Below the pieces are notes generated by a model. The model was not told the DNA's origin. It did no database searches and was given only the letters and a program-made list of their open reading frames with translations. A DNA stretch of 64,000 nucleotides, from contig CAZWPK010000001.1 in assembly GCA_964635905.1 (NCBI GenBank), positions 68,894 to 132,893 on the forward strand, given 5' to 3'. Below are positions 10,319-61,124 of the stretch, one piece after another (position 1 is the first letter of the stretch; the number at the start of each line of letters is the position of its first letter). The position numbers were made by a program, and so were the translations under genes. This DNA comes from an uncultured Pseudomonadales bacterium (GTDB lineage Bacteria > Patescibacteriota > Microgenomatia > UBA1400 > UBA12028).

Positions 10319-10351
10319 CAAAATCTTATTTTTCTTCCAGGGAAAATAGTA

Positions 10352-10823: not shown

Positions 10824-10900
10824 CCCGTATCCTTCTTCAAATTTGGTTTTCCTTGTTTCGTTAAAAAGTGCTATTCTTATTCCTTAAAAAGGAGAATCCT

Positions 10901-33500: not shown

Positions 33501-36500
33501 TGGTTAAGTCTCCACCGGCGTTAATGGTTAAGTTCACCACGTCACTGACGGTTCCCGTGGTGATATCAATGCCATTAATTGTTTCGTTGGTTGCAGCAGT
33601 GAGTGTCCCAGTTGTATTTAGGTTTCCGGAAGCATCAACTTGGAAGGCGTTTGCGGTGCCAGACGTCAGAGTACCCGAGACATCAAGATTTCCAGTGATT
33701 CCAGTAGAACCAGCCGTAATGGTGAGAGCATCCGAGGCAAAGGTAAGCGTAGGATCGGTAGCACCAACATCAAAGGTCCATACTACTCCAGAGCCGGATC
33801 CGAATGTTGTCGTTCCCAATTCCGTAGAGTCAAAGGTCACGGTGGGACTCCAACCTTCTCCCGGAGTTCCAGAAACATCGATAGCGGTGCCTTCGGTTAA
33901 GCCCGCGACATAATTACCCGTTGTATCAGTTCCTAAGGCTACAGAATCGGAGGAGATGGTGAGGGCGGTGGTGTTGGAGGCTCCAAGTGTAGCTGTGATG
34001 TCCCCAGTGAATGTATGACCGGATAAGAGAACGGTTCCTGAGAGGTCAGGGAAGGTAATGGTTTTGTCACTGGTGGTTGGATCCGTGACAGTGAAATAGG
34101 TTTCGATCGTGTTTGTGGTTGCTCCTTCAAAGATCAAGCCGGACTGACCAAACTTCGCGTTGTTGGCTGAGAGAGTGTGATCTCCAGAGAGGGCAGCGGT
34201 GAAATCAAAGGCAATATCATTCGCGTTCACAGCAATGCCGGTTCCAGCACCGATATCAAGGGTTAAGGCTCCGACGGTTCCACCCCCAGTTAAACCGGAT
34301 CCGGCAGTGACACCGGTTGTGGCATAGGTTGCCACATTGTTGGAGTCTACTAAGGTACCAGATCGACCATCGAGGAGCAATAATTCTGCTGTGGAAAGTG
34401 TTCCACCTGTAATCGTCAAATTGTTCGAGCCTAGAGCTAGAGTTCCTGCAGTGGTTATGGTTCCAGCAGTCAGTGTCATGGTGTCGGAGCCAAATGCGAT
34501 TGTTGGGTCGGTTGCACCCGCATCAAAGGTCCAGGTGATTCCTGATCCGGATCCATAGGTCGTTGTTCCCACTTCGGTAGAATCCCAGGCAATATCATCC
34601 GCATTAATATCAATCGCAGTTCCTTCTCCAACATTTAGGGTCACATCTCCAGAAACACCTCCTCCGGTCAACCCAGATCCCGCAGTTACCGATGAAATAT
34701 CTCCAGCTGCCCCAGCTGTGATGGCAGCATCTAAATCATCCAAGACATCTTGCACGGTGGTTGAGGCAGAGTTTCCGAATTCATCAAAAACACCAACTAA
34801 CGATGCACCAGAAGTAATGTTGTCGGAACCGACGTCATTTAATCCGATCGTTCCAATCGTTAAATCCCCACCCGCATTCACCGTAAGGTTGACGACATCC
34901 GTGACTGTCCCGGAAGAGATATCGATGCCATTGATGGTTTCTGCCGTGGCAGCGGTGATGGCTCCAGAGGCATCCACTTGGAAGGCATTTCCGGTTCCAG
35001 ATGTCAGTGTTCCAGAAATATCGAGGTTTCCGGCGATCGCGGTAGATCCAGCCGTGATCGTCAAAGCGTCAGATGCAAAAGCAAGCGTAGGATCGGTAGC
35101 TCCCACATCAAAGGTCCAGGTGATTCCTGATCCACTTCCGAATGTGGTCGTTCCCAATTCCGTAGAGTCAAAGGTCACGGTGGGGCTCCAAGCTTCTCCA
35201 GCAGTGCCTGAAATATCGATCGCAGTTCCTTCGGTAAGTCCTGCTACGTAGTTACCGGTTGTATCGGTACCTAGTGCCACGGAATCGGCCGCAATGGTCA
35301 GTGCGGTTGTGTTACTTGCTCCCAAGGTTGCAGTCACATCACCGGTGAAGGTATGTCCCGACAATAGTACTGTTCCTGACAAATCGGGGAGAGTAATGGT
35401 CTTGTCGGTTGTGGTTGGATCTGTAACTGCTAGGTAGGTTTCAATCGTGTTGGCAGTGGCACCTTCAAAGATGAGTCCTGATTGACCAAACTTGGATTCA
35501 GTGGCGGCTAGTGTGTGATCTCCAGAAAGAGCAGCAGTGAAGTCAAAGGCAATCGCGTCAGCGACAACACTAATTCCAGTTCCAGCACCAATATCCAACG
35601 TGACGTCTCCGCTTACTCCGCCGCCTGTTAATCCAGATCCAGCAGTCACGGAGGAGATATCTCCTGCAGAAGCTGTGGTGATGGCAGCATCTAAGTCGTC
35701 TAGAACATCTTGGACGGTTGTTGAAGCGGAATTACCGAATTCATCGAATACTCCAACCAAGGATGCACCGGAGGTAATATTATCTGTTCCGACGTCGTTC
35801 AAGCCAATAGCGCCGATCGTTAAGTCACCACCAGCATTTATCGTCAAGTTGACCACATCCGACACCGTTCCCGTGGTGATGTCGATCCCATTAATTGTTT
35901 CGTTGGTTGCAGCCGTTAATGTGCCTGTGGTGTTTACATTTCCCGAGGCATCAACTTGGAAGGCGTTCCCGGTTCCCGATGTGAGCGTTCCCGATACATC
36001 CAAGTTGCCTGCGACTGCTGTGGATCCAGCTGTGATGGTGAGGGCATCGGAGGCGAACGCTAAGGTAGGATCTGTCGCACCAACATCAAATGTCCAGGTT
36101 ACTCCAGAGCCAGATCCAAAAGTTGTTGTACCAAGTTCGGTAGAGTCGAACGTTACGGTGGGACTCCATGCTTCACCTGCGGAGCCAGAAATATCAATGG
36201 CAGTACCTTCGGTTAATCCTGCAACATAGTTTCCAGTGGTGTCTGTCCCTAGTGCTACAGAATCGGCGGCAATCGTTAACCCCGTCGAGTTATCAGAATC
36301 GAGTGTTGCGGTCACATCACCAGTAAATGTGTGGCCTGAGAGTAGTACAGTACCGGACAGATCAGGGAAGGTGATGGTTTTGTCAGAGGCTGTGGGATCG
36401 GTGATGGCAAAGTAGGTCTCAATCGTGTTCGCGGTTGCGCCTTCAAAGATCAAACCTGATACACCAAATTTGGATTCGTTGGCGGCCAGTGTGTGATCTC

Positions 36501-39500
36501 CAGATAATGCTGCAGTGAAATCAAAGGCGATCGCGTCAGCCGCTACACTGATTCCAGTTCCAGCACCAATGTTGAGTGTTAATGCGCCAACAGTCCCACC
36601 ACCGGTGAGTCCGGATCCTGCGGTAACTCCGGTGGTGGCATAGGTTGCCACATTGTTGGAGTCTACTAAGGTACCTGATCGACCATCGAGGAGCAATAAT
36701 TCTGCTGTGGAAAGTGTTCCACCCGTAACCGTCAGATTGTTGGATCCAAGAGCTAACGTTCCTGCTGCCGTAATGGTTCCTCCAGTGAGTGTGATGCTAT
36801 CGGAGGCAAAGGCAATCGTAGGATCGGTTGCCCCTGCATCGAATGTCCAGGTGATTCCCGATCCCGATCCAAAGGTCGTCGTTCCAACTTCCGTCGAATC
36901 CCAAGCGATATCATCCGCGTTAATATCGATAGCCGTGCCTTCACCAATATTTAAAGTGACATCTCCAGATACTCCTCCGCCTGTTAATCCTGAACCAGCA
37001 ACGACGGAGGTAATATCTCCAGCACCACCGATACCGGTAACATCGATCCAACTTAAGACTCCGGCGCCATCCGTAATCAAGACCTGGTTGGAACTTCCAT
37101 CGTTAGTTGGGAGGGTGTAGGTTACATCTTGGGTTTGGGTTCCAGTTTGGAACACGGTGGAATAGGCATTGTCACCATTGGAGATCAAAGCTAATTTTCC
37201 AGGGACGTTACTACTACCACTGCCAATGTCGGTTCCGATGGTGATTCCTGTTGCTCCGGCGACATGGAGTGCAGAGGAGGGTGTTTGGGTTCCAATTCCT
37301 ACGTTGGCGGCAATGATGTTGACCTCATCCGTCGCTTGATCATCAAACTCAATGCGTCCTGCAGAAGCACCCAATCCTAACCAGTCATCATCCGCAGTGG
37401 CATCGGTAAACACGTCGCCAGTTGCCATCGAACCGACAGTAGTGATGTCGCCAGTTCCAGCACCAATTCCAGTTACCGATTGCCAAGAGAGAACGCCACT
37501 CCCATTGGTAGTGAGCACATAATCACTGGTACCGTCATCCACGGGTAAGGTGAGGGAATAACTACCTGTTTGAGAGGCGCTTGGTTGGAGAGTCACTGAG
37601 TAATCGGTAGCTCCAAGTTCGTTGTAAACAACGATTGATCCGTCTGTTCCATTACTTCCAAAAGTTGCAGTTCCACCGTTCACCGCGAGTGTACCAGACG
37701 TAGAAATGTTTCCAGAACCATCAACTTGGAATGCATTAGCGGTTCCACTTGCTAATGTTCCTGAGACATCGAGATTTCCAGTAATCCCTGTTGAAGTTGC
37801 TGCAATGGTGAGCGCATCGGAGGCAAAGGTAAACGTCGGATCGGTGGCTCCGACATCAAAGGTCCAGACGACTCCAGATCCTGAACCGAACGTGGTTGTT
37901 CCCAGTTCGGTGGAATCAAAGGTCACGGTGGGACTCCAAGCTTCTCCGGCAGTTCCAGAAACATCGATGGCTGTGCCTTCGGTTAAGCCCGCGACATAAT
38001 TACCGGTTGTATCGGTACCTAGTGCCACGGAATCGGCTGCGATGGTGAGGGCGGTGGTGTTACTTGCCCCTAAGGTTGCAGTCACGTCGCCAGTGAACGT
38101 GTGGCCAGAGAGAAGTACCGTACCTGTGAGGTCAGGGAAGGTAATGGTCTTGTCTGCACTCGTTGCATCCGCAACCGAGAAATACGTTTCAATCGTATTG
38201 GCCGTCGCACCTTCAAAGATAAGCCCCGAGACACCAAACTTTGATTCGTTAGCGGCTAGTGTGTGATCTCCAGAAAGAGCAGCCGTGAAGTCAAAGGCAA
38301 TCGCGTCAGCGGCTACACTGATTCCCGTTCCCGCTCCGATATCCAGGGTGACGTCGCCGGAAGCTCCGCCGCCAGTGAGTCCTGATCCAGCCGTTACAGA
38401 AGAAATATCTCCAGCAGCTCCTGCGGTAATGGCGGCATCTAAATCATCCAAGACATCCTGAACGGTAGTGGAATTGGAATTGGTAAACTCATCAAAGACT
38501 CCAACCAGTGAGGAACCGGAGGTGATGTTTGTTGTACCCACATCGTTTAAGCCGATCGTTCCAATCGTTAAATCTCCACCGGCATTGACGGTGAGGTTGA
38601 CGACATCCGTAACAGTTCCGGTGTTGATATCAATCCCATTGATGGTTTCATCGGTGGCGGCACTGATGGTACTGGCTGTGACAATGGCACCAGCCGTTGA
38701 AATAGACCAATCATCCCCACCTGTTAACGCCAGCGTTGTAGAAGCGTTGTTGTTCCCAATCGTAATCACATCCGCAGCTGTACTGTTGGTTGCGATGTTA
38801 ACGGTATCTGCAGCAGAGGAGCTGACACCCGCAATATCGATCGTCTTTCCGGTGGTGTTGTCCCCGATGTTAATTCTCCCCGTTCCTTCAATCAAAATAT
38901 CATTGCGGACATCGGTGTTATTGGCGATGACAAAGTTATCGGCATCCACACTGATGTAATAATCTTCAGCTGCAGAAGTGGTGTCATTAAAATAGAGGGT
39001 AGGATCAGCCTGTTGGAATGAATGATCACTGGTCCACACAAAGGCATAGGCCTGATCAACGGCAACGCTATCCGTTGCAACGGTAATTCCATTTCCAGCT
39101 CCAACATCCAAGACTCCGGTAGTCAAGGTAAGTCCATTTCCGGCAGTGGTACTGGCCAGCTCTAGTGCGGCTGTCCATCCTTCCCCAGCAGTTCCGGTTA
39201 CGGTAATTCCATTGGTACCAGTGACGTTGGCGACATAATTTCCGGTTGTATCGGTACCTAGTGCCACGGAATCGGCTGCGATGGTGAGGGCGGTGGTGTT
39301 ACTTGCCCCTAAGGTTGCAGTCACGTCGCCAGTGAACGTGTGGCCAGAGAGAAGTACCGTACCTGTGAGGTCAGGGAAGGTAATGGTCTTGTCTGCACTC
39401 GTTGCATCCGCAACCGAGAAATACGTTTCAATCGTATTGGCCGTCGCACCTTCAAAGATAAGCCCCGAGACACCAAACTTTGATTCGTTAGCGGCTAGTG

Positions 39501-42500
39501 TGTGATCTCCAGAAAGAGCAGCCGTGAAGTCAAAGGCAATCGCGTCAGCGGCTACACTGATTCCCGTTCCCGCTCCGATATCCAGGGTGACGTCGCCGGA
39601 AGCTCCGCCGCCAGTGAGTCCTGATCCAGCCGTTACAGAAGAAATATCTCCAGCAGCTCCTGCGGTAATGGCGGCATCTAAATCATCCAACACATCCTGA
39701 ACAGTGGTTGACGCGGAGTTTCCAAATTCATCAAACACTCCAACTAGTGAGGCTCCGGAAGTAATGTTATCCGTTCCAACATCGTTCAAGCCAATCGTGC
39801 CAATGGTCAGATCTCCACCGGCATTGATGGTCAAATTCACCACATCCGAGACGGTACCGGTCGTAATATCAATGCCGTTAATCGTCTCATTGGTTGCAGC
39901 GGTGAGTGTCCCCGTGGTATTGAGGTTCCCTGATGCATCCACTTGGAAGGCGTTGGCAGTTCCAGAGTTGAATGTTCCGGAGACATCGAGGTTTCCTGTA
40001 ATTGCGGTAGCGCCTGCGGCAATGGTGAGTGCATCGGAAGCAAAGGTCAGGGTGGGATCGGTGGCACCAGAGCCATCGAAGGTCCAGGTGAAGTTCGAGT
40101 TCGCTCCAAAGATGGTGGTGCCGACTTCAGTCGAATCAAACGTGACGGTGGGACTCCATCCTTCACCTGCGGCACCGCTAATATCAATCGCAGTTCCTTC
40201 GGTGAGTCCGGCAACATAGTTCCCAACGGTCTGGGTACCTAAGTCAACGGCATTATTGGCAATCGAAATATTGGCTTCATTGGACGGTGAGGCGATCAAG
40301 GAAAATTCTGTGCCAAAATCCAAGGTATCCACGTTGGTGCCAACCGCAACATCATTATTCTCCACGTTGACCACGGCAAACGAAGCACCCGTATCGGATC
40401 CACATTCCCACAAACTGGTCGCATCATTCCATTTCAGAACTTGGCCATCCGAACACCCTTGGAGTAATCCAATGCGATCGGTGTCGACTTCTAGTCCCGA
40501 TGCAGATCCCGTGGATCCCGTACCATCGGCCGAAATCAATTGCAGGGCATCGGCATCCAAATATCCTGTGGCGGTTGTCAGCGTAACTGGTGTAGACCCA
40601 GCCAGCAATTGACCACTTACCAGGACGTTTCCACCGGAGAAGACAAATTGATCAGAGGTATTATAGGACAAACTACCAGTATCTCCAGTGGATGAATACA
40701 GCGACAGGGTTGCATCGGCAGTGGCGCCAGTCCCAATCCGAACCAGGTTACTTGCCACATTCACGGAAAAAGAAGAGGCTAGGGTAGAGCCACCAATCGC
40801 AACGTCATCCGTCGTGGCGGTAAGGTAGGAGAGGGTTCCGGAGTCTGTCCACTTGGAAGCACCCGATCCCATGGCAGAGTCAAAATCATCCAAGACGTCT
40901 TGAAGCGTCGTTGCATTGGAGTTATTAAATTCATCATACACACCAATCAAGGCTGCTCCGGAGGTGGTGTTACTGGAGCCGATGTCATTGAGTCCAATCC
41001 CGCCAATCGACAGATCTTGACCCGCTGTTAAGTTCAGAGAACCCGCACTGTTAATGGTTAACACGTCGGTTCCATCCGAAGCTTCGATCACAAAGTAGTT
41101 TGCAGTTTGGGTGCTGTTTCCTTGAATGAGGAATTGGATCTCATCGCTATCGCCATCAATGCCTAGTTTTGCTAAGTCGAGTGTCGAGCCAATAGTCAGA
41201 TCATCCGTGGTTGCGGTCAGATAGGTTACATCTCCACCATCCGTGAAGAGATTTAAGGATGCGCCATCGCCCCAACTGAAGCCACCGGTTGCAGAGTTAT
41301 AGGAGAGCAGCGCCCCATTAGCTGCGGTTCCAGAGACTTTGATATCGACAGCTGCGATACTGCCATCTTCTAACTCAGCGGAAGCAATCGAGGTCCCTAA
41401 ACTGGTTTGCAAGGATCCATTGGAGACTAAGAGTCCCGTGCCGGTCAAGTCCGTAAAGGAATCTCCATTCAGTGAGAGGGTACCAATCGTTGCCGTGGTG
41501 AGTTGGGCGTTGGGACCATACAAGGTGCCGTCCAATTCAATGTCCCCTGAAACGAATAAATCTCCGGCTGCGGAGTCAATACTTCCTGGAGTGGAATCTC
41601 CAATCAACACCGCTCCACCACCCGGATCAATGACAAGATCTCCCGGCGTTGAAAGCGTATTCCCCGCAATGGTTAAGTCTCCGCCTACGGTTGTGGTACT
41701 CGTGGCGGATCCAATGGTGATGAGCTGGGCAATCGACGGGAAGATGGAAGCGGATGTTACGGAGGTGAGCAACTGTCCACTTTCCAGGGTTAAGGAGCCA
41801 GCAATGGTTGCGTCTTTTGCCACACGGAAATTCTCATTGAGCACGGTATCAACGTTGAGCGAGAAGCGTGTGTACTCTAAGGCGGTGCTACCTAAGATAA
41901 CCGACGGCATCTGCACTGATTCCGGAGCTTTTTTGCCCAAAACGAGGAATCTAGGAGCTTGTAATCGAGGAAGACGGAAGCCTAAGGCAATCGTCTGTAG
42001 TTTTGCAAACTCCACACTGGGAGTACTCGTCACGATCAAGGACGAGAGAGCAAGTAGGGCAATACAACACACCGTTACCAAGGCTGGGCGCAGATCCGCA
42101 ATACTGAGGCTTGGAAACGACACCGTGGGGAGATGGAAAGAAGGTAGCCGTAAGGAGAGCTGCTTGTGCGTGGAAACGGAGTGGGTGATCGAGGACCTCT
42201 CAACGAGTGGTGCGGATACGATGGGTGTACTGGTGGTTGCCACTACAGTAGGGGTGACCGCCGTTTCGCCATAGGGAACGGAAGTGGAGACTGGGGCAGT
42301 ATATAACCCGCGTTCGATGGCTTTCTTGTGTTTCTTGAATTCCTGAAGTTGGAGATACGAATAGCGTCGGTGACCTCCCAAAGTTCGAAGCGGTTCTAAG
42401 ATTCCACGATCTTCCCAGCGTCGGAGAGTTTTTTCAGAAACTTTAAGGATCCTGGCGGCCTCTTGAATGGAAAGTGAGCTAGTATCGAAGTGATTTTCCG

Positions 42501-42510
42501 GCAAACTCAT
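27553..42510 (-). CDS. giant (4985 aa) repeat-rich surface protein: N-terminal MerR-type HTH, single TM anchor, long tandem-repeat ectodomain, phage tail-fibre-like modules
   Basis: Uninterrupted 14958-nt ORF. Residues 13-52 (SIQEAARILKVSEKTLRRWEDRGILEPLRTLGGHRRYSYLQL) match the MerR/excisionase HTH. TM at residues 143-162. At least 8 near-identical units of about 410 aa (NETINGIDITTGTVSDVVNLTINAGGDLTIG...). Motifs NVGIGTQTPSSALHV and NVGIGTTGPDGKLDV resemble the fibre-module signature GNVGIGTTxPxxKLxV. Gly/Thr/Ser-rich beta-solenoid-like composition. Confidence 0.8.
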   Translation of the reverse strand: MSLPENHFDTSSLSIQEAARILKVSEKTLRRWEDRGILEPLRTLGGHRRYSYLQLQEFKKHKKAIERGLYTAPVSTSVPYGETAVTPTVVATTSTPIVSAPLVERSSITHSVSTHKQLSLRLPSFHLPTVSFPSLSIADLRPALVTVCCIALLALSSLIVTSTPSVEFAKLQTIALGFRLPRLQAPRFLVLGKKAPESVQMPSVILGSTALEYTRFSLNVDTVLNENFRVAKDATIAGSLTLESGQLLTSVTSASIFPSIAQLITIGSATSTTTVGGDLTIAGNTLSTPGDLVIDPGGGAVLIGDSTPGSIDSAAGDLFVSGDIELDGTLYGPNAQLTTATIGTLSLNGDSFTDLTGTGLLVSNGSLQTSLGTSIASAELEDGSIAAVDIKVSGTAANGALLSYNSATGGFSWGDGASLNLFTDGGDVTYLTATTDDLTIGSTLDLAKLGIDGDSDEIQFLIQGNSTQTANYFVIEASDGTDVLTINSAGSLNLTAGQDLSIGGIGLNDIGSSNTTSGAALIGVYDEFNNSNATTLQDVLDDFDSAMGSGASKWTDSGTLSYLTATTDDVAIGGSTLASSFSVNVASNLVRIGTGATADATLSLYSSTGDTGSLSYNTSDQFVFSGGNVLVSGQLLAGSTPVTLTTATGYLDADALQLISADGTGSTGSASGLEVDTDRIGLLQGCSDGQVLKWNDATSLWECGSDTGASFAVVNVENNDVAVGTNVDTLDFGTEFSLIASPSNEANISIANNAVDLGTQTVGNYVAGLTEGTAIDISGAAGEGWSPTVTFDSTEVGTTIFGANSNFTWTFDGSGATDPTLTFASDALTIAAGATAITGNLDVSGTFNSGTANAFQVDASGNLNTTGTLTAATNETINGIDITTGTVSDVVNLTINAGGDLTIGTIGLNDVGTDNITSGASLVGVFDEFGNSASTTVQDVLDDLDAAITAGAAGDISSVTAGSGLTGGGASGDVTLDIGAGTGISVAADAIAFDFTAALSGDHTLAANESKFGVSGLIFEGATANTIETYFSVADATSADKTITFPDLTGTVLLSGHTFTGDVTATLGASNTTALTIAADSVALGTDTTGNYVANVTGTNGITVTGTAGEGWTAALELASTTAGNGLTLTTGVLDVGAGNGITVATDSVAVDQAYAFVWTSDHSFQQADPTLYFNDTTSAAEDYYISVDADNFVIANNTDVRNDILIEGTGRINIGDNTTGKTIDIAGVSSSAADTVNIATNSTAADVITIGNNNASTTLALTGGDDWSISTAGAIVTASTISAATDETINGIDINTGTVTDVVNLTVNAGGDLTIGTIGLNDVGTTNITSGSSLVGVFDEFTNSNSTTVQDVLDDLDAAITAGAAGDISSVTAGSGLTGGGASGDVTLDIGAGTGISVAADAIAFDFTAALSGDHTLAANESKFGVSGLIFEGATANTIETYFSVADATSADKTITFPDLTGTVLLSGHTFTGDVTATLGASNTTALTIAADSVALGTDTTGNYVAGLTEGTAIDVSGTAGEAWSPTVTFDSTELGTTTFGSGSGVVWTFDVGATDPTFTFASDALTIAATSTGITGNLDVSGTLASGTANAFQVDGSGNISTSGTLAVNGGTATFGSNGTDGSIVVYNELGATDYSVTLQPSASQTGSYSLTLPVDDGTSDYVLTTNGSGVLSWQSVTGIGAGTGDITTVGSMATGDVFTDATADDDWLGLGASAGRIEFDDQATDEVNIIAANVGIGTQTPSSALHVAGATGITIGTDIGSGSSNVPGKLALISNGDNAYSTVFQTGTQTQDVTYTLPTNDGSSNQVLITDGAGVLSWIDVTGIGGAGDITSVVAGSGLTGGGVSGDVTLNIGEGTAIDINADDIAWDSTEVGTTTFGSGSGITWTFDAGATDPTIAFASDSITLTGGTITAAGTLALGSNNLTVTGGTLSTAELLLLDGRSGTLVDSNNVATYATTGVTAGSGLTGGGTVGALTLNIGAGTGISVAADAIAFDFTAALSGDHTLAANESKFGVSGLIFEGATANTIETYFAITDPTASDKTITFPDLSGTVLLSGHTFTGDVTATLDSDNSTGLTIAADSVALGTDTTGNYVAGLTEGTAIDISGSAGEAWSPTVTFDSTELGTTTFGSGSGVTWTFDVGATDPTLAFASDALTITAGSTAVAGNLDVSGTLTSGTGNAFQVDASGNVNTTGTLTAATNETINGIDITTGTVSDVVNLTINAGGDLTIGAIGLNDVGTDNITSGASLVGVFDEFGNSASTTVQDVLDDLDAAITTASAGDISSVTAGSGLTGGGVSGDVTLDIGAGTGISVVADAIAFDFTAALSGDHTLAATESKFGQSGLIFEGATANTIETYLAVTDPTTTDKTITLPDLSGTVLLSGHTFTGDVTATLGASNTTALTIAADSVALGTDTTGNYVAGLTEGTAIDISGTAGEAWSPTVTFDSTELGTTTFGSGSGITWTFDVGATDPTLAFASDALTITAGSTAIAGNLDISGTLTSGTGNAFQVDASGAITAATAETINGIDISSGTVTDVVNLTVNAGGDLTIGTIGLNDVGSDNITSGASLVGVFDEFGNSASTTVQDVLDDLDAAITAGAAGDISSVTAGSGLTGGGVSGDVTLNVGEGTAIDINADDIAWDSTEVGTTTYGSGSGITWTFDAGATDPTIAFGSDTMTLTAGTITTAGTLALGSNNLTITGGTLSTAELLLLDGRSGTLVDSNNVATYATTGVTAGSGLTGGGTVGALTLDIGAGTGIAVNANDIAFDFTAALSGDHTLSANNAKFGQSGLIFEGATTNTIETYFTVTDPTTSDKTITFPDLSGTVLLSGHTFTGDITATLGASNTTALTISSDSVALGTDTTGNYVAGLTEGTAIDVSGTPGEGWSPTVTFDSTELGTTTFGSGSGVVWTFDVGATDPTLTFASDALTITAGSTGITGNLDVSGTLTSGTANAFQVDASGNLNTTGTLTAATNETINGIDITTGTVSDVVNLTINAGGDLTIGTIGLNDVGTDNITSGSSLVGTFDEFANSASTTVQDVLDDLDASITTALAGDISSVTAGSGLTGGGVSGDVTLNIGEGTAIDINADDIAWDSTEVGTTTYGSGSDFTWTLNGSGVTDPTLAAGNNSLTLTAGTITAAGTLALGSNNVTVTGGTLSTAELLLLDGRSGTLVDSNNVATYATTGVTAGSGLTGGGTVGALTLNIGAGTGISVAADAIAFDFTAALSGDHTLAANESKFGVSGLIFEGATANTIETYFSVADATSADKTITFPDLTGTVLLSGHTFTGDVTATLGAANTTALTIASDSVALGTDTTGNYIAGLTEGTAIDVSGSAGEAWSPTVTFDSTELGTTTFGSGSGITWTFDAGATDPTLAFASDALTITAGSTGITGNLDVSGTLISGTANAFQVDASGAITAATAETINGIDINTGTVSDVVNLTINTGGDLTIGAIGLNDVGTDNITSGASLVGVFDEFGNSASTTVQDVLDDLDAAIAGSGGDITSVVAGSGLTGGGITGDVTLNVGEGTAIDINADDIAWDSTEVGTTTYGSGSGFTWTFDAGATDPTLAFASDSMTLTAGAITAAGNLTVSGTTGLTLSGVGGDITFANGEKIDNDTDGTVTITAPTTAVSGDLSVGGGDITTAGGENIDLGEATADTATFYINSVAELALNATNLTAGAAEGNSLGSAAAEWEQLFLGDDNGIAFGLDQDWTLGYDEATDDRLELVTAGTSGMLIQSATATGTGLATTFNALSSGTGLALSSTSTALTSGSLASLDWSPGSATTASGDLFRINIGTNGTTTGNLFDIEDTGSSLFSVSESAITANLPTSFTAAGDVSMAYDLLFTNQTAAYIKSYGPLILQAGESFENNNLSFQTYGTGNAVFDFQGTGDVVINSADPNIILDTKTATDTDFWLGVQEDAGSDDDDLFQIGDGTTPGTNAFLTINTSGNVGIGTTGPDGKLDVLATSGSQLRLTYADGSTYSDLTTDTNGDLTIAPSGGDLTLSGNTTISGTTGLTLSGVGGDITFANGEKIDNDTDGTVTITAPTTAVSGDLSVGGGDITTAGGENIDLGEATADTATFYINSVAELALNATNLTAGAAEGNSLGSAAAEWEQLFLGDDNGIAFGLDQDWTLGYDEATDDRLELVTAGTSGMLIQSATATGTGLALSVNALSSGTGLSLASTSTAFTSGFLANFDWSPGSATSATGDLFRINIGTNGSTSGNLFSVADTASSLFSVSETAITAALPVAFNAPGDVSMAYDLQFTNQTTSSIKSKAPLYIEAGENYESNDLTLRTYNGGDIVADLTGTGNFVVSNTSTSVTGTTATDLNVAGGFITTNDLDTISLLVRNGNTGAITMTNVGTAGAQGDPGVLTVEGAGSSTTAYNLITAYNSLTRSDAASVFRVRADGTVYGEAAFQTTGADLAEYFEKEGDLPTNEVVGINYETGKVRRFQSGDKLLGITSNRAGFVGNYPKGKTDEQIAASYALVGFTGQLDVKLDDQEGSIRPGDPLRPSTQSGRATKANKPGYIIGYALEAWTPGSGDRDVLVYVNPSFADPTMALDNQGQMVADGLAQLASNPEAEANKTLIRSIAASLSEIVESTSNVFTTLIAGTIQSSSIQTDTLTVGGKSLHNLVIDTIAQNGYLVSQSERVDTREASISGILTAAEATISGNLTAKNITEMANRLITAEASISSLLAQDSTISGQQKDELLASLNPEIKLIVSDLLSDSADWNTEASSSADLISADAVFANEYLNVQGTASITNAHINTALIVGSSMAFDKNSINLISDTESTLYVQATGTGTLDLLAGALTLNREGGLVVTTDALFTQDVTVQGQLSTTLIAPESKILGIQLASESGVLSSESGKLAIKSGMTEVASIDASGSATFAKLTLSAPTTASGSATNASTGKAVLKQGQTDVIIYTTQVSSDSLIYITPTSSTNNQVLYVSGKQGQDETTTTVGGFTVTLDQALSKDVEFNWWIIN
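30041..31680. repeat. direct duplication of about 1.26 kb inside the giant gene (type B unit x2)
   Basis: 30041-30420 is base-identical to 31301-31680. It encodes two copies of TISGTTGLTLSGVGGDITFANGEKIDNDTDGTVTITAPTT...GMLIQSATATGTGLA. Confidence 0.75.
32600..40250. repeat. tandem array of near-identical coding repeats of about 1.24-1.34 kb inside the giant gene (type A, at least 7-8 units)
   Basis: Identical stretches can be seen directly, e.g. 38042-38266 = 39281-39505. Repeated protein blocks AT[N/D/A]ETINGIDI[T/N/S][T/S]GTV[S/T]DVVNLT[I/V]N[A/T]GGDLTIG recur. Array boundaries are approximate. Confidence 0.7.
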
Positions 42511-42557
42511 ACATGGGTAAGTTTTTAACTCAGTCTCTTTTCGTTAACCTCTTGATC

Positions 42558-42669
42558 AAATGTCCAATTCTTGTTTTCGTTTTATGTCCAAATTTAGTAG
42601 ACCATTTTTTCGCACCCGGTGTCAAGCATGGAAATTGGACATTTTTATGAGTAAAAGTCCAAGTTTTTA
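42558..42669. promoter_or_regulatory. cluster of four AAATGTCCAA(A/G)TTT-like motifs in the divergent intergenic region upstream of the giant gene
   Basis: aaatgtccaattc (42558-42570), tatgtccaaattt (42583-42595), inverted aaattggacattt (42633-42645), aaagtccaagttt (42654-42666). A fifth copy aaatgtccaagttt lies at 43252-43265. Confidence 0.45.
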
Positions 42670-43427
42670 TAGGCAGATGCAATCCCGTCTTTTTTGTGTC
42701 AAAAACCTCAAATTTGATGGCAAATTGACTAAAAATACTCTGGAAATGAAATGAACTGCATAGTGCTCTGAATACCTAAAAACCTGCGGTAGTAGCGCGG
42801 TAATATCACAAGAATACGAATCTCTTGCTTTCAAGATGTAGACAGGTAAAAAATAGTTATCACCGCAGATTAAATCAGAGATAACGCGGCAGTATTATTT
42901 GCAAGAAGTATGGAAATGGATTTTTTGTGCTGTAACCGAACTGAGTAGCTTTTTTCTTCACTTTAGTATCCAAACAGCACTTTTTTTAAACTGTCTCAAC
43001 ACGTTCTTGCAATCCCCGTACTCAGAAAATGGAGTTTTTCCGACCAAGGGGGTACGCAAACGGGGAATACCGCACGCTCATTCTCCTCGTCTCCCGTCGA
43101 TTGCGGTGGGAAGCCAGCCTATCGGCATACCCAACATATAGCGACATCTACTTTGGGTGCAACCCAATCTCAATGAGTGCGTCGATTACTACGATGCAAA
43201 GAAGAGCTCCTTAATCCAACCGTAGGTTTATGATCAATCTTCTTATAGAGTAAATGTCCAAGTTTCGCGGCACGAAATGTTCTAAATACATTGTGTTCAT
43301 CGGTAATTTAATACGCACTGTCGTTGCGTAAAATGGCCAATCTACTGCCGAACGATGCTTCGGGTATTCATTCCTCGGTGTGGAACCACTTTGCATATCG
43401 ACCAAGAACAACGCTATACTAAGCCTA

Positions 43428-44198
43428 ATGCATCGTATTGGAATCTATCTACTAGCGGCTCTATTTCTTCTCTTCGTTTCTTCGCGCAGTGTCTCTGCTC
43501 AAATAAGTTCATCGGGAGTCGCAACACCCGTGATCGTGGGGGGGACTGCGCCCTCCCTTGGAAGCGTAATCTGTTCTGGAAAGGGAAGTTATGAACTCTG
43601 CTCCAATACCTATGACACTTCTATCTTTGGTGTCGTTTCGACGATTCCTGCAGCCTCGTTTGACATGGAGCCGCAAGAGAATCAGTACTTGGCTGTTACC
43701 CATGGAAAGACGATCGTCCAAGTTGTGGGAAGTGGAGGAGCGATTAAAAATGGAGATTTGCTAACGAGTTCCGAGCGACCGGGGTTTGCCCAGAAAGCCG
43801 ATCGCAATGGCTATGTTTTGGGGATGGCTCTGGAAGATTTTAACCCGAATAGTCCGGATGAAACGACAACGCTGCTCGTGTCCTTAAACATCCATCCCAC
43901 GACCATTTTTATTGACGTCAAGAACAATTTGTTTAAAGCACTTCAACAAGGATTGTCCGCACCGATTTTGACGCCACTAGCTGCCATGCGCTATATGATT
44001 GCGGCGTTGGTCACCGTACTCTCGTTCATTCTTGGGTTCGTCTATTTTGGCCGATTTGCAAAAACCGGAATTGAAGCGATCGGACGAAATCCTCTGGCGC
44101 GGTTTCAAATCCAAACCACTGTTATTTTTAACTTATTCTTAATGGCAGGAATCTTTGTGGTCGGACTCGCGCTCTCGTACTTTATCTTAGTCTTGTAG
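43428..44198 (+). CDS. secreted protein (signal peptide) with a C-terminal two-helix membrane hairpin resembling F-ATPase c-subunit but lacking the ion-binding carboxylate
   Basis: MHRIGIYLLAALFLLFVSSRSVSAQ is the signal peptide. C-terminus GIEAIGRNPLARFQIQTTVIFNLFLMAGIFVVGLALSYFILVL compares with Bacillus-type subunit c [41 protein letters not shown], with the Glu position replaced by Met. Start placed at the Met after the in-frame track extension. Confidence 0.55.
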   Translation: MHRIGIYLLAALFLLFVSSRSVSAQISSSGVATPVIVGGTAPSLGSVICSGKGSYELCSNTYDTSIFGVVSTIPAASFDMEPQENQYLAVTHGKTIVQVVGSGGAIKNGDLLTSSERPGFAQKADRNGYVLGMALEDFNPNSPDETTTLLVSLNIHPTTIFIDVKNNLFKALQQGLSAPILTPLAAMRYMIAALVTVLSFILGFVYFGRFAKTGIEAIGRNPLARFQIQTTVIFNLFLMAGIFVVGLALSYFILVL

Positions 44199-44217: not shown

Positions 44218-45912
44218 GTGATTATGCTCAGTTTCTTACGACCATTGTTTGCTCCCAAGTTTCGTCCGGCTGCCAATGCCATTCCGCCCGTGGTGCTGAT
44301 TTCTCTGGACGGGTGGGGCATTGCCCCCGATTCTCATGGAAATGCGATCACCCAGGCAAAAACACCGAACTGGGACAGCTATCTTTCCACCTACCCTAAC
44401 TCGCAGCTCATTGCATCGGGAGAATCGGTCGGATTACCAGCCAATGAAGTCGGTAACTCGGAGGTGGGGCATTTAACCATGGGGGTAGGACGCGTGATCT
44501 TTGAGAGTTTGCTGCGGATCAACAAAGCCATTGAAGATGAATCTTTTTTTCGTAATGAAGCACTCCTTGCGGCCATCGACTACGTGCAGGCCCATCACAG
44601 TACATTACATTTGTTGGGACTGGTGGGAGCAGGGAACGTTCACTCTTCTGTCTCGCATCTGTATGCCTTATTAGAACTTGCTAAACGCGCGAAGCTTCCC
44701 AAGGTTTGTTTGCATGTCTTTACGGATGGGCGTGACTCTCCACCGCATGATGGGGTCAATGTAATTACCAAACTAGAATATGAGATTAAGGAACACTATC
44801 CCTTTGCGCGGATTGCTACAGTCTCAGGACGCTACTACGCGATGGACCGGGACACCCGTTGGGAACGCACGCAGAAAGCCTACGACGCAATTGTGATGGG
44901 GAAGGGAGTCCAAGCCCACAATGCAACGACGGCGGTCAGTGCCTCGTATAAAGACGGGAAGACGGATGAGTTTATTGAAGCAACGGTGATTGTGGACGCG
45001 GCTGGAAACTGCAGCCCCGTCAATGACAATGATGCCTGCATTTTCTTTAATTTCCGTGTCGACCGTCCGCGTCAGTTAACCAAAGCGTTTGTGCTCCCCG
45101 ATTTTGAATCCGGTGCATTTCAATTCGAAGAAGAGAAGAAGACTCCTTCCGCATTTCATCAACCCAAGCCTACATTTAAACGGGAAAAGCGGCCCGCCAA
45201 TCTGTTTTTTGTGACGATGACGGAGTATCAACAGGGGTTGCCAGTGAGTAAGATTGCATTTCCCAACGATACCGTACAGCACTCGCTCCCCGAAGTTCTT
45301 GCTGCAGCAAAACTCCGTCAGTTTCATCTAGCAGAAAGCGAAAAGGAACGAATGGTGACCTATTATTTCGATGGTCTACGCATCGACAAATTTCCCGGAG
45401 AAGACACCTTAATCATTCCATCTCCATCCGTGGGAACCTATGATCGAAAGCCAGAAATGTCACTTCCCGCAATCGTGGATGCTTTTAAAACGGCTCTTGC
45501 GTCCAATACCTATCACTTCTTCATGCTCAACTTTGCCAACCCCGATATGGTCGCGCACAGTGGCAAACTCAAAGCCACCATTAAGGCGTGTGAGATTGTC
45601 GATTGGGCGCTGGGGGACATGGTGCCGATGGTGTTGTCAGTAGGAGGGACCGTGTTTATCACCGCTGATCACGGCAATGCGGAGGAACTTCTAACCTTTG
45701 ATTCTTCCGGGTTCTTCTTTACCACCAGAGAAGGGGCGATGAATACCGAACACTCTAATAATCCGGTTCCATTCGTCATGATTAATACTGCCTATCAAGG
45801 AAAAACCCAAGCGTTGGCTGACGGAAGTTTGGCGGATGTTGCTCCCACCATTTTGACCCTCCTACAACTTCCAATCCCGGAACAGATGACCGGGCAAAAC
45901 CTACTCAAGTAA
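44218..45912 (+). CDS. gpmI: 2,3-bisphosphoglycerate-independent phosphoglycerate mutase (iPGM)
   Basis: VVLISLDGWGIAPDSHGNAITQAKTPNWD, NSEVGHLTMGVGRV, TDGRDSPP, ITADHGNAE. These are the iPGM metal-binding blocks. Confidence 0.85.
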   Translation: MIMLSFLRPLFAPKFRPAANAIPPVVLISLDGWGIAPDSHGNAITQAKTPNWDSYLSTYPNSQLIASGESVGLPANEVGNSEVGHLTMGVGRVIFESLLRINKAIEDESFFRNEALLAAIDYVQAHHSTLHLLGLVGAGNVHSSVSHLYALLELAKRAKLPKVCLHVFTDGRDSPPHDGVNVITKLEYEIKEHYPFARIATVSGRYYAMDRDTRWERTQKAYDAIVMGKGVQAHNATTAVSASYKDGKTDEFIEATVIVDAAGNCSPVNDNDACIFFNFRVDRPRQLTKAFVLPDFESGAFQFEEEKKTPSAFHQPKPTFKREKRPANLFFVTMTEYQQGLPVSKIAFPNDTVQHSLPEVLAAAKLRQFHLAESEKERMVTYYFDGLRIDKFPGEDTLIIPSPSVGTYDRKPEMSLPAIVDAFKTALASNTYHFFMLNFANPDMVAHSGKLKATIKACEIVDWALGDMVPMVLSVGGTVFITADHGNAEELLTFDSSGFFFTTREGAMNTEHSNNPVPFVMINTAYQGKTQALADGSLADVAPTILTLLQLPIPEQMTGQNLLK

Positions 45913-45953: not shown

Positions 45954-46589
45954 TTGGTTGCTTTAGTTCACAATGAAACAATGGAGTTAACGCCCTTACT
46001 GATTTACGAATCATTCATCCTGATCATCGGAGTTTCTGCCGTCCTTGCCTTTGCGGCGTTCTACTATCGACTCTTAAAAGGCTACACGCTCCTGCGCCAA
46101 GACTACATCGCCCTGGAAGCCAAAACGAAAAAAGATTCTGCTGCGCTTCTGGAAGACTCACAGCAGCAAGCGATTCGGATTATTCGGGAATCCCGTGTTC
46201 TCTCCGAAGAACTCAAAGAAAAATTGGCAACCATCCTGACAGCCGCAGCCAAGAGTGAAGGGAAAGCCTACGAAGAAGTACTGGAGGGTGTGGAAGAAGA
46301 TCTCAAACGAGAATCACTGTCCAAAGTGGATGCGTTTGCCAAGAGTCTTGAAAAGGAAACTGTGTCTTCCCAGCATGAGATCGAGAAACGACTGGAATCC
46401 GCGTATGCCGCTGTGGATACCGAGGTGGAGATGGTAAAGAAAGCAAAACTAGCCAAGTTGGATACGCAAATTGCTGCCATCGTCACCGAGGTGATTTCTG
46501 CCTCTACGGGGAAAGTAGTTTCTTTGCAAGATCACGACGATTGGATTCGAAAGGCCCTCAAGGATGCAACCAAGCAAGCTGGACTCTAA
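45954..46589 (+). CDS. atpF: F-type ATP synthase subunit b-like (single N-terminal TM plus long charged coiled coil)
   Basis: N-terminal helix LLIYESFILIIGVSAVLAFAAFYY, then an Ala/Glu/Lys-rich helical region. Lies immediately upstream of the delta/alpha/gamma/beta/epsilon genes. The true start may be the internal Met (MELTP...). Confidence 0.55.
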   Translation: MVALVHNETMELTPLLIYESFILIIGVSAVLAFAAFYYRLLKGYTLLRQDYIALEAKTKKDSAALLEDSQQQAIRIIRESRVLSEELKEKLATILTAAAKSEGKAYEEVLEGVEEDLKRESLSKVDAFAKSLEKETVSSQHEIEKRLESAYAAVDTEVEMVKKAKLAKLDTQIAAIVTEVISASTGKVVSLQDHDDWIRKALKDATKQAGL

Positions 46590-47049
46590 CCTCAAGCAGT
46601 TCCTGGTCACCATCGATGATAAAGTGGCGATGCTGCAAGCGATTGCCAAATTAAAACTGGTGCAGTTCTCCACGAGTTCGGATGCCTTGGCTTCGACGCT
46701 TAAAAACGACGTTTCCTATGATGTGGCAACCGCACTTTCCGGATTACTCAAAGAGGAAACTCCTCCTAGTTTTGAAGCGATTGAAACATGGCTCACCAAA
46801 CTTCCAGTCGTTTCGTTGACGTTGCCATTTTCCCCAACACGAAGTCAGTTGCAAGCCTATCAAGAAATTCTGCAAACAGAAGGGAAACAGGAAACGATCC
46901 TCTTGCAGATTCAGGTGCGTCCCCAACTCCTTGCAGGGGTGCAGATAGAGATTGCGGGGTCGTATCGTGATTATTCACTCCAAACGGCTCTGGATTCTTT
47001 TGTACATACCCCGGCGTATCAAGCCATACTCACCAAACATCTGCAATGA
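46564..47049 (+). CDS. atpH: F-type ATP synthase subunit delta (OSCP)
   Basis: 161 aa. C-terminus LLAGVQIEIAGSYRDYSLQTALDS resembles the delta consensus (GG..v..Gd...DgSvr..L). Position fits between b and alpha. Confidence 0.6.
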   Translation: MQPSKLDSNLKQFLVTIDDKVAMLQAIAKLKLVQFSTSSDALASTLKNDVSYDVATALSGLLKEETPPSFEAIETWLTKLPVVSLTLPFSPTRSQLQAYQEILQTEGKQETILLQIQVRPQLLAGVQIEIAGSYRDYSLQTALDSFVHTPAYQAILTKHLQ

Positions 47050-48507
47050 AAACCTTTCAGGACTACCTTACCAGTACGCAGGAAATCGGCTATGTTGAAA
47101 AGCTGTTACATGGATTAGTGACGGTCACGGGGATTCCCAGTGTGCGCTTGTTTGAACTTGTGATATTGGAATCCGGTGAGATGGGACAAGTGATTAGTTT
47201 GACTCCAGAAATGGTTGAAGTCTTGTTGTTTACCGCAACTCCCATTCAGGCTGGTACCCGGGTCGTGCGAACGAATGAGCGGTTATCCGTAGGCTTGGGT
47301 CAGGGGATCTTGGGAAAACGTCTAAATGCGCTCGGTGAAGTCACTGGACTGTATGCCCCGATTCAAGTCGATGAATACCGTGGGATTGATATTCGTCCGC
47401 AAGGAATCATGGCTCGCGCTCCCATTGAAAAGCCTTTAGAAACCGGGGTTGCCGTTGTCGACTTGATCATCCCCTTAGCCAAAGGTCAGCGTCAGCTGAT
47501 TATCGGAGATCGAAAGTCCGGGAAAACCACCTTCTTACTGCAGACCCTTTTAACCCAAGCAAAAAACGGATTAGTTTGTGTGGTGGCGGCGATTGGGAAA
47601 CGCGCAATCGAGATTCGACAACTGGAAGACTTCATCAAGGCCAATGGAATTGAGTCGCAAGTGGTGATTGTCGCCTCCGCTTCCTCGGATCCTTCTGGCC
47701 TCATCTTTTTAACTCCCTATACCGCAATGACAGTGGCCGAGTATTTCCGTGATCAGGGCAGGGACACGCTGATCATCATGGATGATCTGTCGATGCATGC
47801 GGCAGTCTACCGCGAAATCACGCTGATTGCCCGACGGTTCCCCGGTCGTGCTGCCTATCCCGGAGATATCTTTTACACCCATGCCCGCTTGATGGAACGG
47901 GGAGGAAACTACAAGTCAAAATCAGGCAGTTCGGTGTCTATCACAGTCTTACCCGTCATTCAAACCGCAATGGGGGATTTGGCTGCCTACATTACCACGA
48001 ATATCATGTCCATGACCGATGGCCATTTGTATTTTGATACCCAGCTATTCGATCAGGGACGTCGACCCTCGGTCAATCCCTTTCTCTCGGTTACGCGTGT
48101 GGGACTGGAAGCCCAAACACCCATTCAACGCGATGTTTCAAGAAGCCTGCAAAGTTTCTTAGTCCAGCACGAGAAAATGAAACAATATACCCACTTTGGC
48201 GCCGAAGTCTCGCAGGGTGTTCGTGATACCTTGGCCTTAGGGGATCGGATCTATACCTTCTTTCAACAGCTCTCCGATGAAGTCTATCCCATCCACGTGA
48301 GTATCTTAATCTTGGCGCTACTCTGGGGTGGACTCTGGGCAGAGTTAGAACCGGAAAAAATGAAAGCGCTCATGAAAAAAACGATTCAACGTTACCAGGA
48401 AGAAGCCAGCTTTACCTCGCAAGTCGATACGCTGATTACGCAAGCGGCTGATTTTACCCAGCTCGTTGCTACCGCCAAATCACAGATAGATACACTCAAA
48501 GTTCGCT

Positions 48508-48518
<11 letters not shown>
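47046..48518 (+). CDS. atpA: F-type ATP synthase subunit alpha
   Basis: P-loop GDRKSGKTTFLLQTLL. DDLSMHAAVYREITLIARRFPGRAAYPGDIFYTHARLMER. Confidence 0.9.
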
Positions 48519-50755
<2,237 letters not shown>

Positions 50756-50760
50756 TCACT

Positions 50761-51021
50761 ATGGCAACGTACCCCCCAATGATGCTCACGGTTAAAAGCC
50801 GCGAAAAGACGCTTTTTGAAGGTGAAGTGACATCGATAACTTCCTATAACGAAAAAGGTAAATTTGACGTTCTACCGCTCCACAGCAATTTTATTTCTCT
50901 AATCGGTGAAAAAATCATCATCCAACCCACCGTAGGTCCTACGCAAGAAATTCAGCTAGATAATGCCGTGCTGCGTGTGATAGAAAACACGATCCAAATC
51001 TTCATTGGCATCGAGCGCTAA
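50761..51021 (+). CDS. atpC: F-type ATP synthase subunit epsilon (short form)
   Basis: 86 aa. LTVKSREKTLFEGEVTSITSYNEKGKFDVLPLHSNFISLI is an epsilon-like beta-sandwich. Confidence 0.7.
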   Translation: MATYPPMMLTVKSREKTLFEGEVTSITSYNEKGKFDVLPLHSNFISLIGEKIIIQPTVGPTQEIQLDNAVLRVIENTIQIFIGIER

Positions 51022-56880: not shown

Positions 56881-56898
56881 ACAGTGTTAAGTGTAGCA

Positions 56899-57213: not shown

Positions 57214-57533
57214 AATTACCTCTTCGATAAATAATATTTTGTTGCTTTTCGACTTGGGTAGCACGTCTTTATAAATATTTTTTCTGCATCCTCTACGAAG
57301 GGGACAAAGAAAACATAGGCCTCTATTTCAATTTTTCTCTTCATTCCACCGAATCGTCTTCATACATTCTCAATCCACCCATAGTGTAATACGGCGTATA
57401 TACAATGTCAATTCATCGCATTACAGTATTGAGTTGCTTTCTCGACCGATAAGACCTATAATAACAATCTACTCTCACCCCATACTACATGGGGAATGAG
57501 AGTCTTGTCCTTTGATTTCTAGCGGAGGCAAAA

Positions 57534-61113: not shown

Positions 61114-61124
61114 CGACACAACCT

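Follow-up and report, generated by a model that had tools for sequence, protein, structure and literature searches.

A Microgenomatia protein family that fuses a subunit c-derived hairpin lacking the ion-binding carboxylate to a phage-fiber-like surface domain, encoded beside F1-ATPase genes

Why do bacteria that mostly lack a respiratory chain keep the genes of an F-type ATP synthase, and do these genes still encode an enzyme that moves ions? Members of the candidate phyla radiation (also called CPR or Patescibacteria) are mostly devoid of such a chain, yet nearly all of them retain the F-type ATP synthase, and the reason is an acknowledged puzzle (PMC11665869). The question is raised anew by a Microgenomatia stretch of 64,000 nucleotides from contig CAZWPK010000001.1 (hereafter the window, meaning the whole stretch of DNA that was analyzed), in which an open reading frame (ORF) at positions 43428-44198 of the plus strand lies just upstream of gpmI and a block of atp genes. 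We show that its product ends in a two-helix hairpin that derives from the F-type subunit c, that the ion-binding carboxylate is missing from this hairpin throughout the family, and that the hairpin is joined to an extracellular domain with the fold of phage fiber proteins; we refer to the protein as the fusion. The explanation that we favor, with about even confidence, is that the fusion is a c-derived, non-conducting membrane subunit of a remodeled F-type ATPase, which carries a crown on the cell surface.

The ORF was verified, and its product of 256 aa is identical to a protein (P0001) called in public assemblies. From the N-terminus to the C-terminus, it comprises a typical signal peptide, an all-beta ecto-domain of ~140 aa, a linker, and the two-helix hairpin, which together were modeled by AlphaFold2 (AF2) with a mean predicted local distance difference test (pLDDT) score of 86.8. 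The features of the gene are the following, with P+n denoting the nth residue past the proline of the loop:

43428..43499, plus strand: signal peptide, residues 1-24, MHRIGIYLLAALFLLFVSSRSVSA followed by Q, with cleavage predicted after VSA
43500..43922, plus strand: ecto-domain, about residues 25-165, an all-beta barrel of ~10 strands, pLDDT 82-96 (AF2)
43923..43973, plus strand: linker with a short helix (168-177), residues 166-182, pLDDT 58-72, the lowest-confidence part of the AF2 model
43974..44087, plus strand: c-like helix 1, residues 183-220 (family alignment, hhalign, AF2, Foldseek)
44085..44093, plus strand: cytoplasmic loop R220-N221-P222, within the motif G(I/V)EAIGRNPLA
44091..44195, plus strand: c-like helix 2, residues 222-256 (hmmsearch and hhalign register)
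44130-44132, plus strand: Asn235, P+13 (residue counts over 88 loci and 265 proteins)
44145-44147, plus strand: Ala240, P+18, the position of the c-subunit carboxylate (profile register)

The hydrophobic N-terminal helix spans residues 2-17 of the model, and the 'V.AQ' junction at the end of the signal peptide is conserved in the family alignment. The ecto-domain contains two invariant cysteines (C49 and C58) and the motif GDLLTSS..PG.A.KA..NGYVLG.ALE. Helix 1 begins with P183, R188, and Y189, all invariant in alignment A1, and the two long helices of the model (residues 183-220 and 222-255) meet at R220-N221-P222. Because positive charges are concentrated in this loop and a signal peptide is present, the predicted topology, with the N-terminus outside, the loop inside, and the C-terminus outside, is that of a c subunit. 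Both the ORF with its signal peptide and the c-like topology had been proposed in a preliminary description of this DNA, and both are upheld.

The preliminary description had further likened the loop and helix 2 of the hairpin to subunit c, leaving room for a chance likeness of two hydrophobic helices. Taken singly, the window protein gives a faint signal, which is the point in favor of chance: Pfam ATP-synt_C (PF00137) aligns with its C-terminal 67 aa over profile positions 2-59 of 60 at an E-value (E) of 0.032, and the 14.9 bits do not reach the curated gathering score of 24; the NCBIfam model 'F0F1 ATP synthase subunit C' matches with E 0.004, and the threshold of NCBIfam PRK07354 is not reached either (17.6 vs. 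128). The family as a whole speaks for common descent. PF00137 is the Pfam family most frequently matched by the hairpins of relatives, being hit individually by 11 out of 24 of them (E <= 0.1; best E 3.7e-5). A search of all 177,635 distinct PDB sequences with profile A2, built from the family hairpins, returned F-type c subunits as the nine top matches (best E 5.8e-4), with the first unrelated protein appearing only at E 0.22. Comparison by hhalign of the hairpin family with alignment A3, which consists of seven canonical c subunits, paired 69 of 74 columns (E 1.1-1.5e-5) and placed the R-N-P loop of the family on the R-Q/N-P loop of the c subunits; the score of 31.2 compares with 16.2 for the reversed alignment and no more than 16.8 across 30 column shuffles. 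Finally, Foldseek superposes the hairpin on solved c subunits with template modeling scores of 0.73-0.87, a root-mean-square deviation of 1.3-2.0 A, and 18-32% identity, and relatives carry the label 'F0F1-type ATP synthase membrane subunit c' in some IMG entries. A chance likeness is thus contradicted by the reversed and shuffled controls, as well as by the conserved operon position described below, and we regard its probability as close to nil. Collectively, these results show that the whole hairpin, including both helices, is derived from the F-type subunit c. The likeness had therefore been recognized correctly, as had the match of the R-x-P loop (R220-N221-P222, aligned by both hmmsearch and hhalign), and the profile comparison that had been named as a possible refutation found the relationship, with the controls well below the real score; the restriction to the loop and helix 2 was mistaken, since helix 1 takes part in the 69 aligned columns as well.

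The family is large and centered on the Microgenomatia. A first search recovered 220 relatives, and all those with a named source belong to Woesebacteria, Microgenomates, or the 'Patescibacteria group'. A profile search of a representative library of 50%-identity clusters yielded 504 clusters at E <= 1e-30 and 3813 clusters at E <= 1e-10, the latter probably including proteins that have only the ecto-domain in common. Scanning one genome per GTDB species provided 80 loci, with identity down to 28%, from Woese-, Levy-, Ames-, and Woykebacteria and other Microgenomatia, together with a few records labeled Saccharibacteria; 88 loci entered the residue tallies and 69 species loci were evaluable for synteny. 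Complete genomes bearing the fusion include CP066693.1, CP055307.1, OZ246419.1, and OY970292.1. No Pfam family was matched that covers the full-length window protein or its ecto-domain, and no relatives were found among 2.9 million viral contigs (IMG/VR), so a phage origin of the whole fusion gene was rejected. We note that many GTDB species genomes among L009-L088 bear the title 'uncultured Gammaproteobacteria' or 'Pseudomonadales bacterium' (binchicken, third party annotation assemblies), and one is titled 'Nanoarchaeia archaeon'; the NCBI organism names of these metagenome-assembled genomes, which carry a Microgenomatia-type locus, look wrong.

Throughout this family, the residue on which ion translocation by c subunits depends is gone. 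Hairpin position 58 is aligned with Glu62, the ion-binding residue of the c15 ring of Spirulina; in the window protein, this position is Ala240, located 18 residues past the loop proline. The absence of the carboxylate had been noticed in the preliminary description, which took Met for the substitute; the profile register instead assigns the position to Ala240, with Met239 being the residue just before it. Across the 88 loci, neither Asp nor Glu is ever seen at P+18, which is occupied by Ile, Ala, Val, Leu, Phe, Met, Thr, Gly, or Ser; relatives mostly have Ile, Val, or Leu where the window protein has Ala. The same holds for 265 family proteins, a set that includes representatives of 50%-identity clusters drawn from 1.84 billion proteins: none has Asp or Glu at P+18, and an acidic residue occurs anywhere in helix 2 in only two of them, both times near the membrane interface. 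Helix 1 also departs from canonical c subunits, as it is without the GxGxGxG motif and has the family consensus SFxLGFxYFGR.

Other parts of the hairpin have hardly changed. The R-N-P loop is present in 265 out of 265 family members examined, despite divergence to 28% identity, and the surrounding cytoplasmic motif G(I/V)EAIGRNPLA is nearly constant, with a variant, (V/I)ENIARNPSVK, common to L029 and L079. Gly246 and Tyr251 are invariant in the 36-sequence family alignment, and by our own reading, Gly246 would be the counterpart of a Gly that the PS3 and chloroplast sequences in A3 conserve six residues past their carboxylate. No part of the protein is better conserved in the family than the hairpin, and the fusion retains the atpE position across lineages that are just 28-40% identical; these observations point to selection on a c-like role beside F1 rather than decay. 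The idea of a degenerate c-subunit relic, put forward in the preliminary description, is therefore not supported, whereas its other option, a non-conducting c-like element, is the one favored by the evidence, with the lack of ion transport itself being what we infer.

Could ions nevertheless be bound at an unconventional site? One may imagine that the residue at P+13, together with other polar side chains, stands in for the carboxylate, and that an unrecognized partner replaces subunit a. Almost every member indeed has Asn, His, or Gln at this position (across the loci, 57 N, 21 H, and 2 Q; among 246 scored proteins, 190 N, 47 H, and 2 Q). However, Asn cannot carry a proton, P+13 lies ~1.4 helical turns cytoplasm-ward of the canonical site, no a-like protein with a membrane arginine is encoded nearby, and, as textbooks have it, no known rotor ring works without a carboxylate. 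We consider this explanation improbable. Because the window protein scores below the family threshold and has neither the carboxylate nor the glycine motif, the fusion should, on these sequence features, be described as c-derived and not be filed as AtpE.

The genes downstream of the fusion encode a phosphoglycerate mutase and an F1 with both stalks:

44218..45912, plus strand: gpmI, cofactor-independent phosphoglycerate mutase (Pfam Metalloenzyme and iPGM_N on neighbors)
45981..46589, plus strand: atpF-like subunit b, one transmembrane (TM) helix and a long helix (family profile vs. PDB)
46564..47049, plus strand: atpH-like delta (PF00213, E 1.8e-5, residues 84-146)
47046..48518, plus strand: F1 alpha, P-loop GDRKSGKT and SVTRVG Arg finger present
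48508..49380, plus strand: F1 gamma (PF00231, E 2e-27)
49382..50755, plus strand: F1 beta, DNAFRF retained
50761..51021, plus strand: F1 epsilon, 86 aa (PF02823 over residues 7-81 of 86)

The gpmI gene starts 20-26 nt past the fusion gene, and given a gap of only this length, the two are probably co-transcribed; gpmI lies beside the fusion in 36 out of 69 loci and is absent from Levy- and Amesbacteria-type loci. A glycolytic enzyme encoded within an atp operon brings to mind the F1-like gliding motor of Mycoplasma mobile, which contains a phosphoglycerate kinase. Where gpmI is missing, the stop of the fusion adjoins the start of b, which is exactly the slot of atpE, and replacement, not addition, is therefore the simplest history. 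The linkage extends well beyond the window: in 62 of the 69 evaluable species loci, alpha follows downstream of the fusion at a distance of no more than 5 kb, and in 3 more it is adjacent, with overlapping or rearranged genes. Exceptions are L027, L029, L032, and L044, which have no atp genes in the available downstream sequence, L079 (a complete genome), in which the atp genes are found on the far side of the giant gene described below, and L084, in which b-delta-alpha-gamma-beta-epsilon are transcribed divergently from the fusion.

The catalytic subunits are those of an ordinary F-type enzyme, with alpha and beta matching solved F1 at E 1e-125 and 1e-94. The P-loops, the catalytic GER motif, DNxFRF, and the Arg finger of alpha are all retained, and, judging from these motifs, F1 looks catalytically competent. 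One substitution in beta deserves mention. The highly conserved beta motif SALLGRMPSAVGYQPTL is altered in the window beta, and nearly all fusion-associated beta subunits have other residues in place of its Gly-Arg, in most cases Asn followed by a residue that varies, with a few keeping the Arg. Loss of the phosphate-binding Arg of beta was considered and ruled out: the Arg of DNxFRF (R246 in Escherichia coli) is conserved, and the substituted Arg is that of LLGRMPS.

The stalks display several peculiarities. As a single sequence, subunit b has no Pfam match, and the six best PDB matches of its family profile are F-type b subunits (E 4e-6 to 4e-4). Delta matches OSCP in its C-terminal part only, and the N-terminus of alpha is ~20 residues shorter than in solved alpha subunits, so that alpha is predicted to be without the delta-binding segment; attachment of the peripheral stalk may thus be altered. 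Epsilon consists of the beta-sandwich alone and has no C-terminal helical domain. In bacterial enzymes, this C-terminal domain inhibits hydrolysis, and we count an epsilon without it in favor of an F1 that hydrolyzes ATP.

What the operon does not contain is a canonical c or an a subunit. A canonical-c hidden Markov model found only the fusion proteins themselves in the window and in ~1.2 Mb of neighborhoods from 80 species, and neither the window nor the +-10 kb flanks of the 80 species yielded a subunit a by phmmer with the E. coli a subunit, Pfam labels of called neighbors (none of which is PF00119 or PF00137), and inspection and Pfam scans of multi-TM ORFs. Both subunits were likewise missing from each of the 88 loci. 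The multi-TM ORFs of 170-340 aa in the window and loci, which might have concealed a subunit a, turned out to be antisense artifacts in the giant genes, Peptidase_M50, or 7TM_transglut, or were unassigned proteins without the Arg-x3-Asn/Gln hallmark. For the window, this agrees with the preliminary description, which had placed the gene upstream of gpmI and an atp block (b, delta, alpha, gamma, beta, epsilon) without atpB or atpE.

The missing genes might of course be located elsewhere. If normal a and c subunits are encoded at another site, the cell would possess an ordinary ion-translocating F1Fo, and a few copies of the fusion would reside in or beside its c-ring, either tethering a surface domain to the enzyme or lowering the ion-to-ATP ratio. 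There is precedent, given that natural rings can hold carboxylate-free hairpins, the textbook example being c1 of Acetobacterium woodii, and the ring partner 4bem is among the PDB matches; retention of b and delta is likewise expected with a stator that contains subunit a, and the F-type module has been scored as present in Microgenomatia (PMC9166423). Set against this are the lack of any canonical c or a in the neighborhoods surveyed, the placement of the fusion exactly at the atpE site next to b, and the very small size of these genomes, in which a duplicate Fo would be unusual. An accessory role in a mixed ring hence appears unlikely, although it deserves to be taken seriously.

On the outer side of the membrane, the fusion presents a domain of viral appearance. 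Foldseek matches the ecto-domain to entries named 'preneck appendage protein' and to other C-terminal barrels of phage tail fibers in BFVD (E 1e-11), and, in the PDB, to phage capsid decoration or cement proteins and to premature phi29 gp12 (E 1e-4 to 3e-3; 3suc, E 3e-3). No Peptidase_G2 or other Pfam match was obtained for the ecto-domain of the fusion. The connection at the sequence level is provided by a giant gene transcribed divergently from the fusion:

27553..42510, minus strand: giant protein of 4985 aa, divergent, with N-terminal MerR/HTH_17, one TM helix, and long internal repeats
~29095-29361, minus strand: Peptidase_G2 (phage pre-neck appendage) segment of the giant protein (PF11962, E 1e-11, profile positions 14-98 only)
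~28711-29109, minus strand: stretch of the giant protein homologous to the ecto-domain, directly after Peptidase_G2 (sequence similarity)

The ecto-domain shares 29% identity (E 4e-9) with the C-terminal part of the giant protein. In 55 out of 69 evaluable species loci, a homolog of the giant gene is found upstream of the fusion in divergent orientation, and in most species loci conservation is detectable over the N-terminal 500 residues of the giant protein, which cover the helix-turn-helix (HTH) domain, the TM helix, and the beginning of the extracellular portion. A cytoplasmic HTH domain on a giant tail-fiber-like surface protein is an odd combination. In long relatives of the fusion (P0248, P0252, P0260, and P0264; 446-538 aa), the signal peptide gives way to an HTH-like domain and a TM helix, with weak HTH_17 matches (E 0.005-0.007). 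Equating their N-terminal HTH with that of the giant protein was not borne out, since BLASTP is not significant; the layout is alike, which is a hint only.

The two divergent genes are separated by a gap of 918 bp (42511-43427), the equivalent of which measures 300-1240 bp in relatives. Neither a tRNA nor an Rfam match nor a conserved ORF was found in this gap, which presumably holds divergent promoters. Directly downstream of the 4985-aa gene and on the same strand, two further giant proteins of 1553 and 1640 aa (17840-22501 and 22646-27568, minus strand) are encoded, each with six Laminin_G_3/concanavalin-like domains and DUF2341; they may form one surface-protein operon with the 4985-aa gene.

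These surface relationships suggest yet another possibility, namely, that the hairpin is a stand-alone membrane anchor for a phage-fiber-like domain that works with the giant protein, without contact to F1, and that the link to the atp genes is historical or regulatory. Loss of both GxGxGxG and the carboxylate would be understandable in an anchor, as would the domain shared with the giant protein, the replacement of the signal peptide by an HTH-like domain and a TM helix in the long variants, and the existence of the four loci without atp genes directly downstream. What a mere anchor would not be expected to show is a cytoplasmic G-x-E-A-I-G-R-N-P-L-A loop that stays nearly unchanged over 28-100% identity, this loop being, according to textbooks, the F1-binding site of c subunits; nor would it account for a linkage to F1 genes kept in ~90% of species. 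We therefore deem a simple anchor rather unlikely.

We return to the explanation that we favor, a non-conducting, c-derived subunit in a remodeled F-type ATPase. An ancestral Fo c subunit (atpE) would have been rebuilt into the fusion protein, with the signal peptide placing a phage-fiber-like beta-barrel outside the cell and the hairpin retaining the c fold and the cytoplasmic R-N-P loop, minus the carboxylate and the glycine zipper of helix 1. In canonical enzymes, gamma and epsilon dock on the cytoplasmic loop of c. Copies of the fusion could likewise contact F1 and assemble into a membrane foot, probably a ring, beneath an intact and presumably catalytically competent F1. Because there is no carboxylate and no subunit a, this foot would be able to carry neither protons nor sodium ions; rather than pumping ions, F1 would use ATP hydrolysis to move the foot and the beta-barrels of its external crown, or to hold them in place, giving a mechanical or anchoring output at the cell surface. 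The likely partner outside would be the giant tail-fiber-like protein encoded divergently next door, because it carries a domain homologous to the ecto-domain. Since both the central (gamma, epsilon) and the peripheral (b, delta) stalks are kept, rotation, or at least torque between the stalks, would still matter.

Several considerations weigh against this explanation. The absence of canonical a and c applies to the neighborhoods, and a normal atpB/atpE pair may sit elsewhere in the genomes; the KEGG F-type ATPase module is flagged as present for Microgenomatia, in a table that gives no subunit detail and with the column order inferred (PMC9166423 supplementary tables). Bulky Phe and Tyr residues occupy the part of helix 1 where c subunits have GxGxGxG, which makes the tight packing of an inner ring doubtful. 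By our geometric reasoning, the N-terminus of c lies on the inner ring, and 8-15 domains of 15 kDa each would need to fan out from a narrow rim. Moreover, retention of b and delta implies a stator, yet without subunit a there is no obvious brace for b.

A bolder version of the favored explanation takes the mechanical output literally. The only F-type ATPase of Microgenomatia would then be an ATP-driven rotary or ratchet motor of the cell surface, in which torque from F1 is passed through a carboxylate-free ring to the crown of barrels, which engages the giant protein and possibly the surface filaments of CPR bacteria, so that mechanical work outside the cell replaces ion movement. We put this forward tentatively, as a rather unlikely proposal. 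If true, it would represent a novel means of transmitting rotary force across a membrane.

The window also contains features that bear on none of these subjects. Two regions, 54676-57264 (minus strand) and 60520-62441 (plus strand), hold a TrwB/VirD4-like coupling ATPase next to a CopG-antitoxin-like gene, and the competence genes ComEA and ComEC. Two tRNA-Ala genes with anticodons GGC and CGC (10248-10319 and 10753-10825, plus strand) are located 430 bp apart.

For the puzzle with which we began, the results suggest that its premise seems wrong for one large class: these bacteria have F1 and both stalks, together with a membrane part without the proton-binding residue, no subunit a nearby, and a surface domain instead. 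In this whole class of ultra-small CPR bacteria, the 'ATP synthase' probably does not translocate ions in the customary manner. Counting its genes as complex V in metabolic reconstructions would then be misleading, and some IMG entries already label the fusion as 'subunit c'. The family is also a large unannotated one, for which no Pfam model exists although it comprises 500 or more clusters at 50% identity, and no published description of the fusion was found in the searchable literature.

How does this locus compare with systems that are already known? The gene neighborhoods of the Pam pilus in CPR bacteria have a link to ATP genes, which Troman et al. (bioRxiv 10.64898/2026.03.03.709456, June 2026) interpret as a coupling to the production of ATP. 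Neither 'subunit c' nor 'F-type' is used as a term in the main text of that preprint, and the sections of it covered here do not mention a missing subunit a (10.64898/2026.03.03.709456). No Pam-like pilin was recognized in the window, where no comparison with PamA sequences was made.

The closest counterpart of the fusion is the F-type AtpE (PF00137), with which it shares the two-helix hairpin, the termini outside and the R-(Q/N)-P loop inside, the Gly at carboxylate+6, and, when gpmI is absent, a gene directly upstream of atpF. Unlike AtpE, the fusion carries a 140-aa extracellular beta-barrel preceded by a signal peptide, and has no Asp or Glu in helix 2, no GxGxGxG, and a sub-threshold Pfam score. 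Whereas atpE normally lies between atpB and atpF, the fusion is found upstream of atpF, or of gpmI followed by atpF, in ~90% of species loci, with no atpB in any neighborhood. The outer half resembles the barrels of phage pre-neck appendage, tail-fiber, and Peptidase_G2 proteins and the decoration proteins in its fold, and is tied to them in sequence through the stretch of the giant protein that follows Peptidase_G2. Unlike the phage barrels, the ecto-domain is not on a phage, is fused to a membrane hairpin, and is not placed at the end of a fiber.

Hairpins of the c type without a carboxylate can remain in a rotor ring, as illustrated by c1 of A. woodii and by the V/A-type proteolipids with duplicated hairpins. 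However, their rings or polypeptides always hold carboxylate-bearing hairpins too, alongside subunit a, and have no extracellular domain, whereas every copy of the fusion examined is carboxylate-free. No ring is known in which carboxylate-free hairpins are the sole kind.

F1-like engines of mycoplasmas (Beven et al. 2012; Toyonaga et al. 2021) are reportedly reused without an ion-translocating Fo and linked to surface machinery. The matches of the window beta subunit include 9io5, the G1-ATPase of the M. mobile gliding motor. The Type 2 and Type 3 F1-like clusters of mycoplasmas differ from the present locus in that they are extra paralogues beside a normal F1Fo and are without a c-derived subunit; the window locus, in contrast, has orthodox F-type alpha and beta and keeps b, delta, epsilon, and a c-derived membrane part. 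Thus, carboxylate-free hairpins in mixed rings and Fo-less F1-like engines in mycoplasmas are known already, and what appears to be new here is the fusion of a c-derived hairpin with a surface domain.

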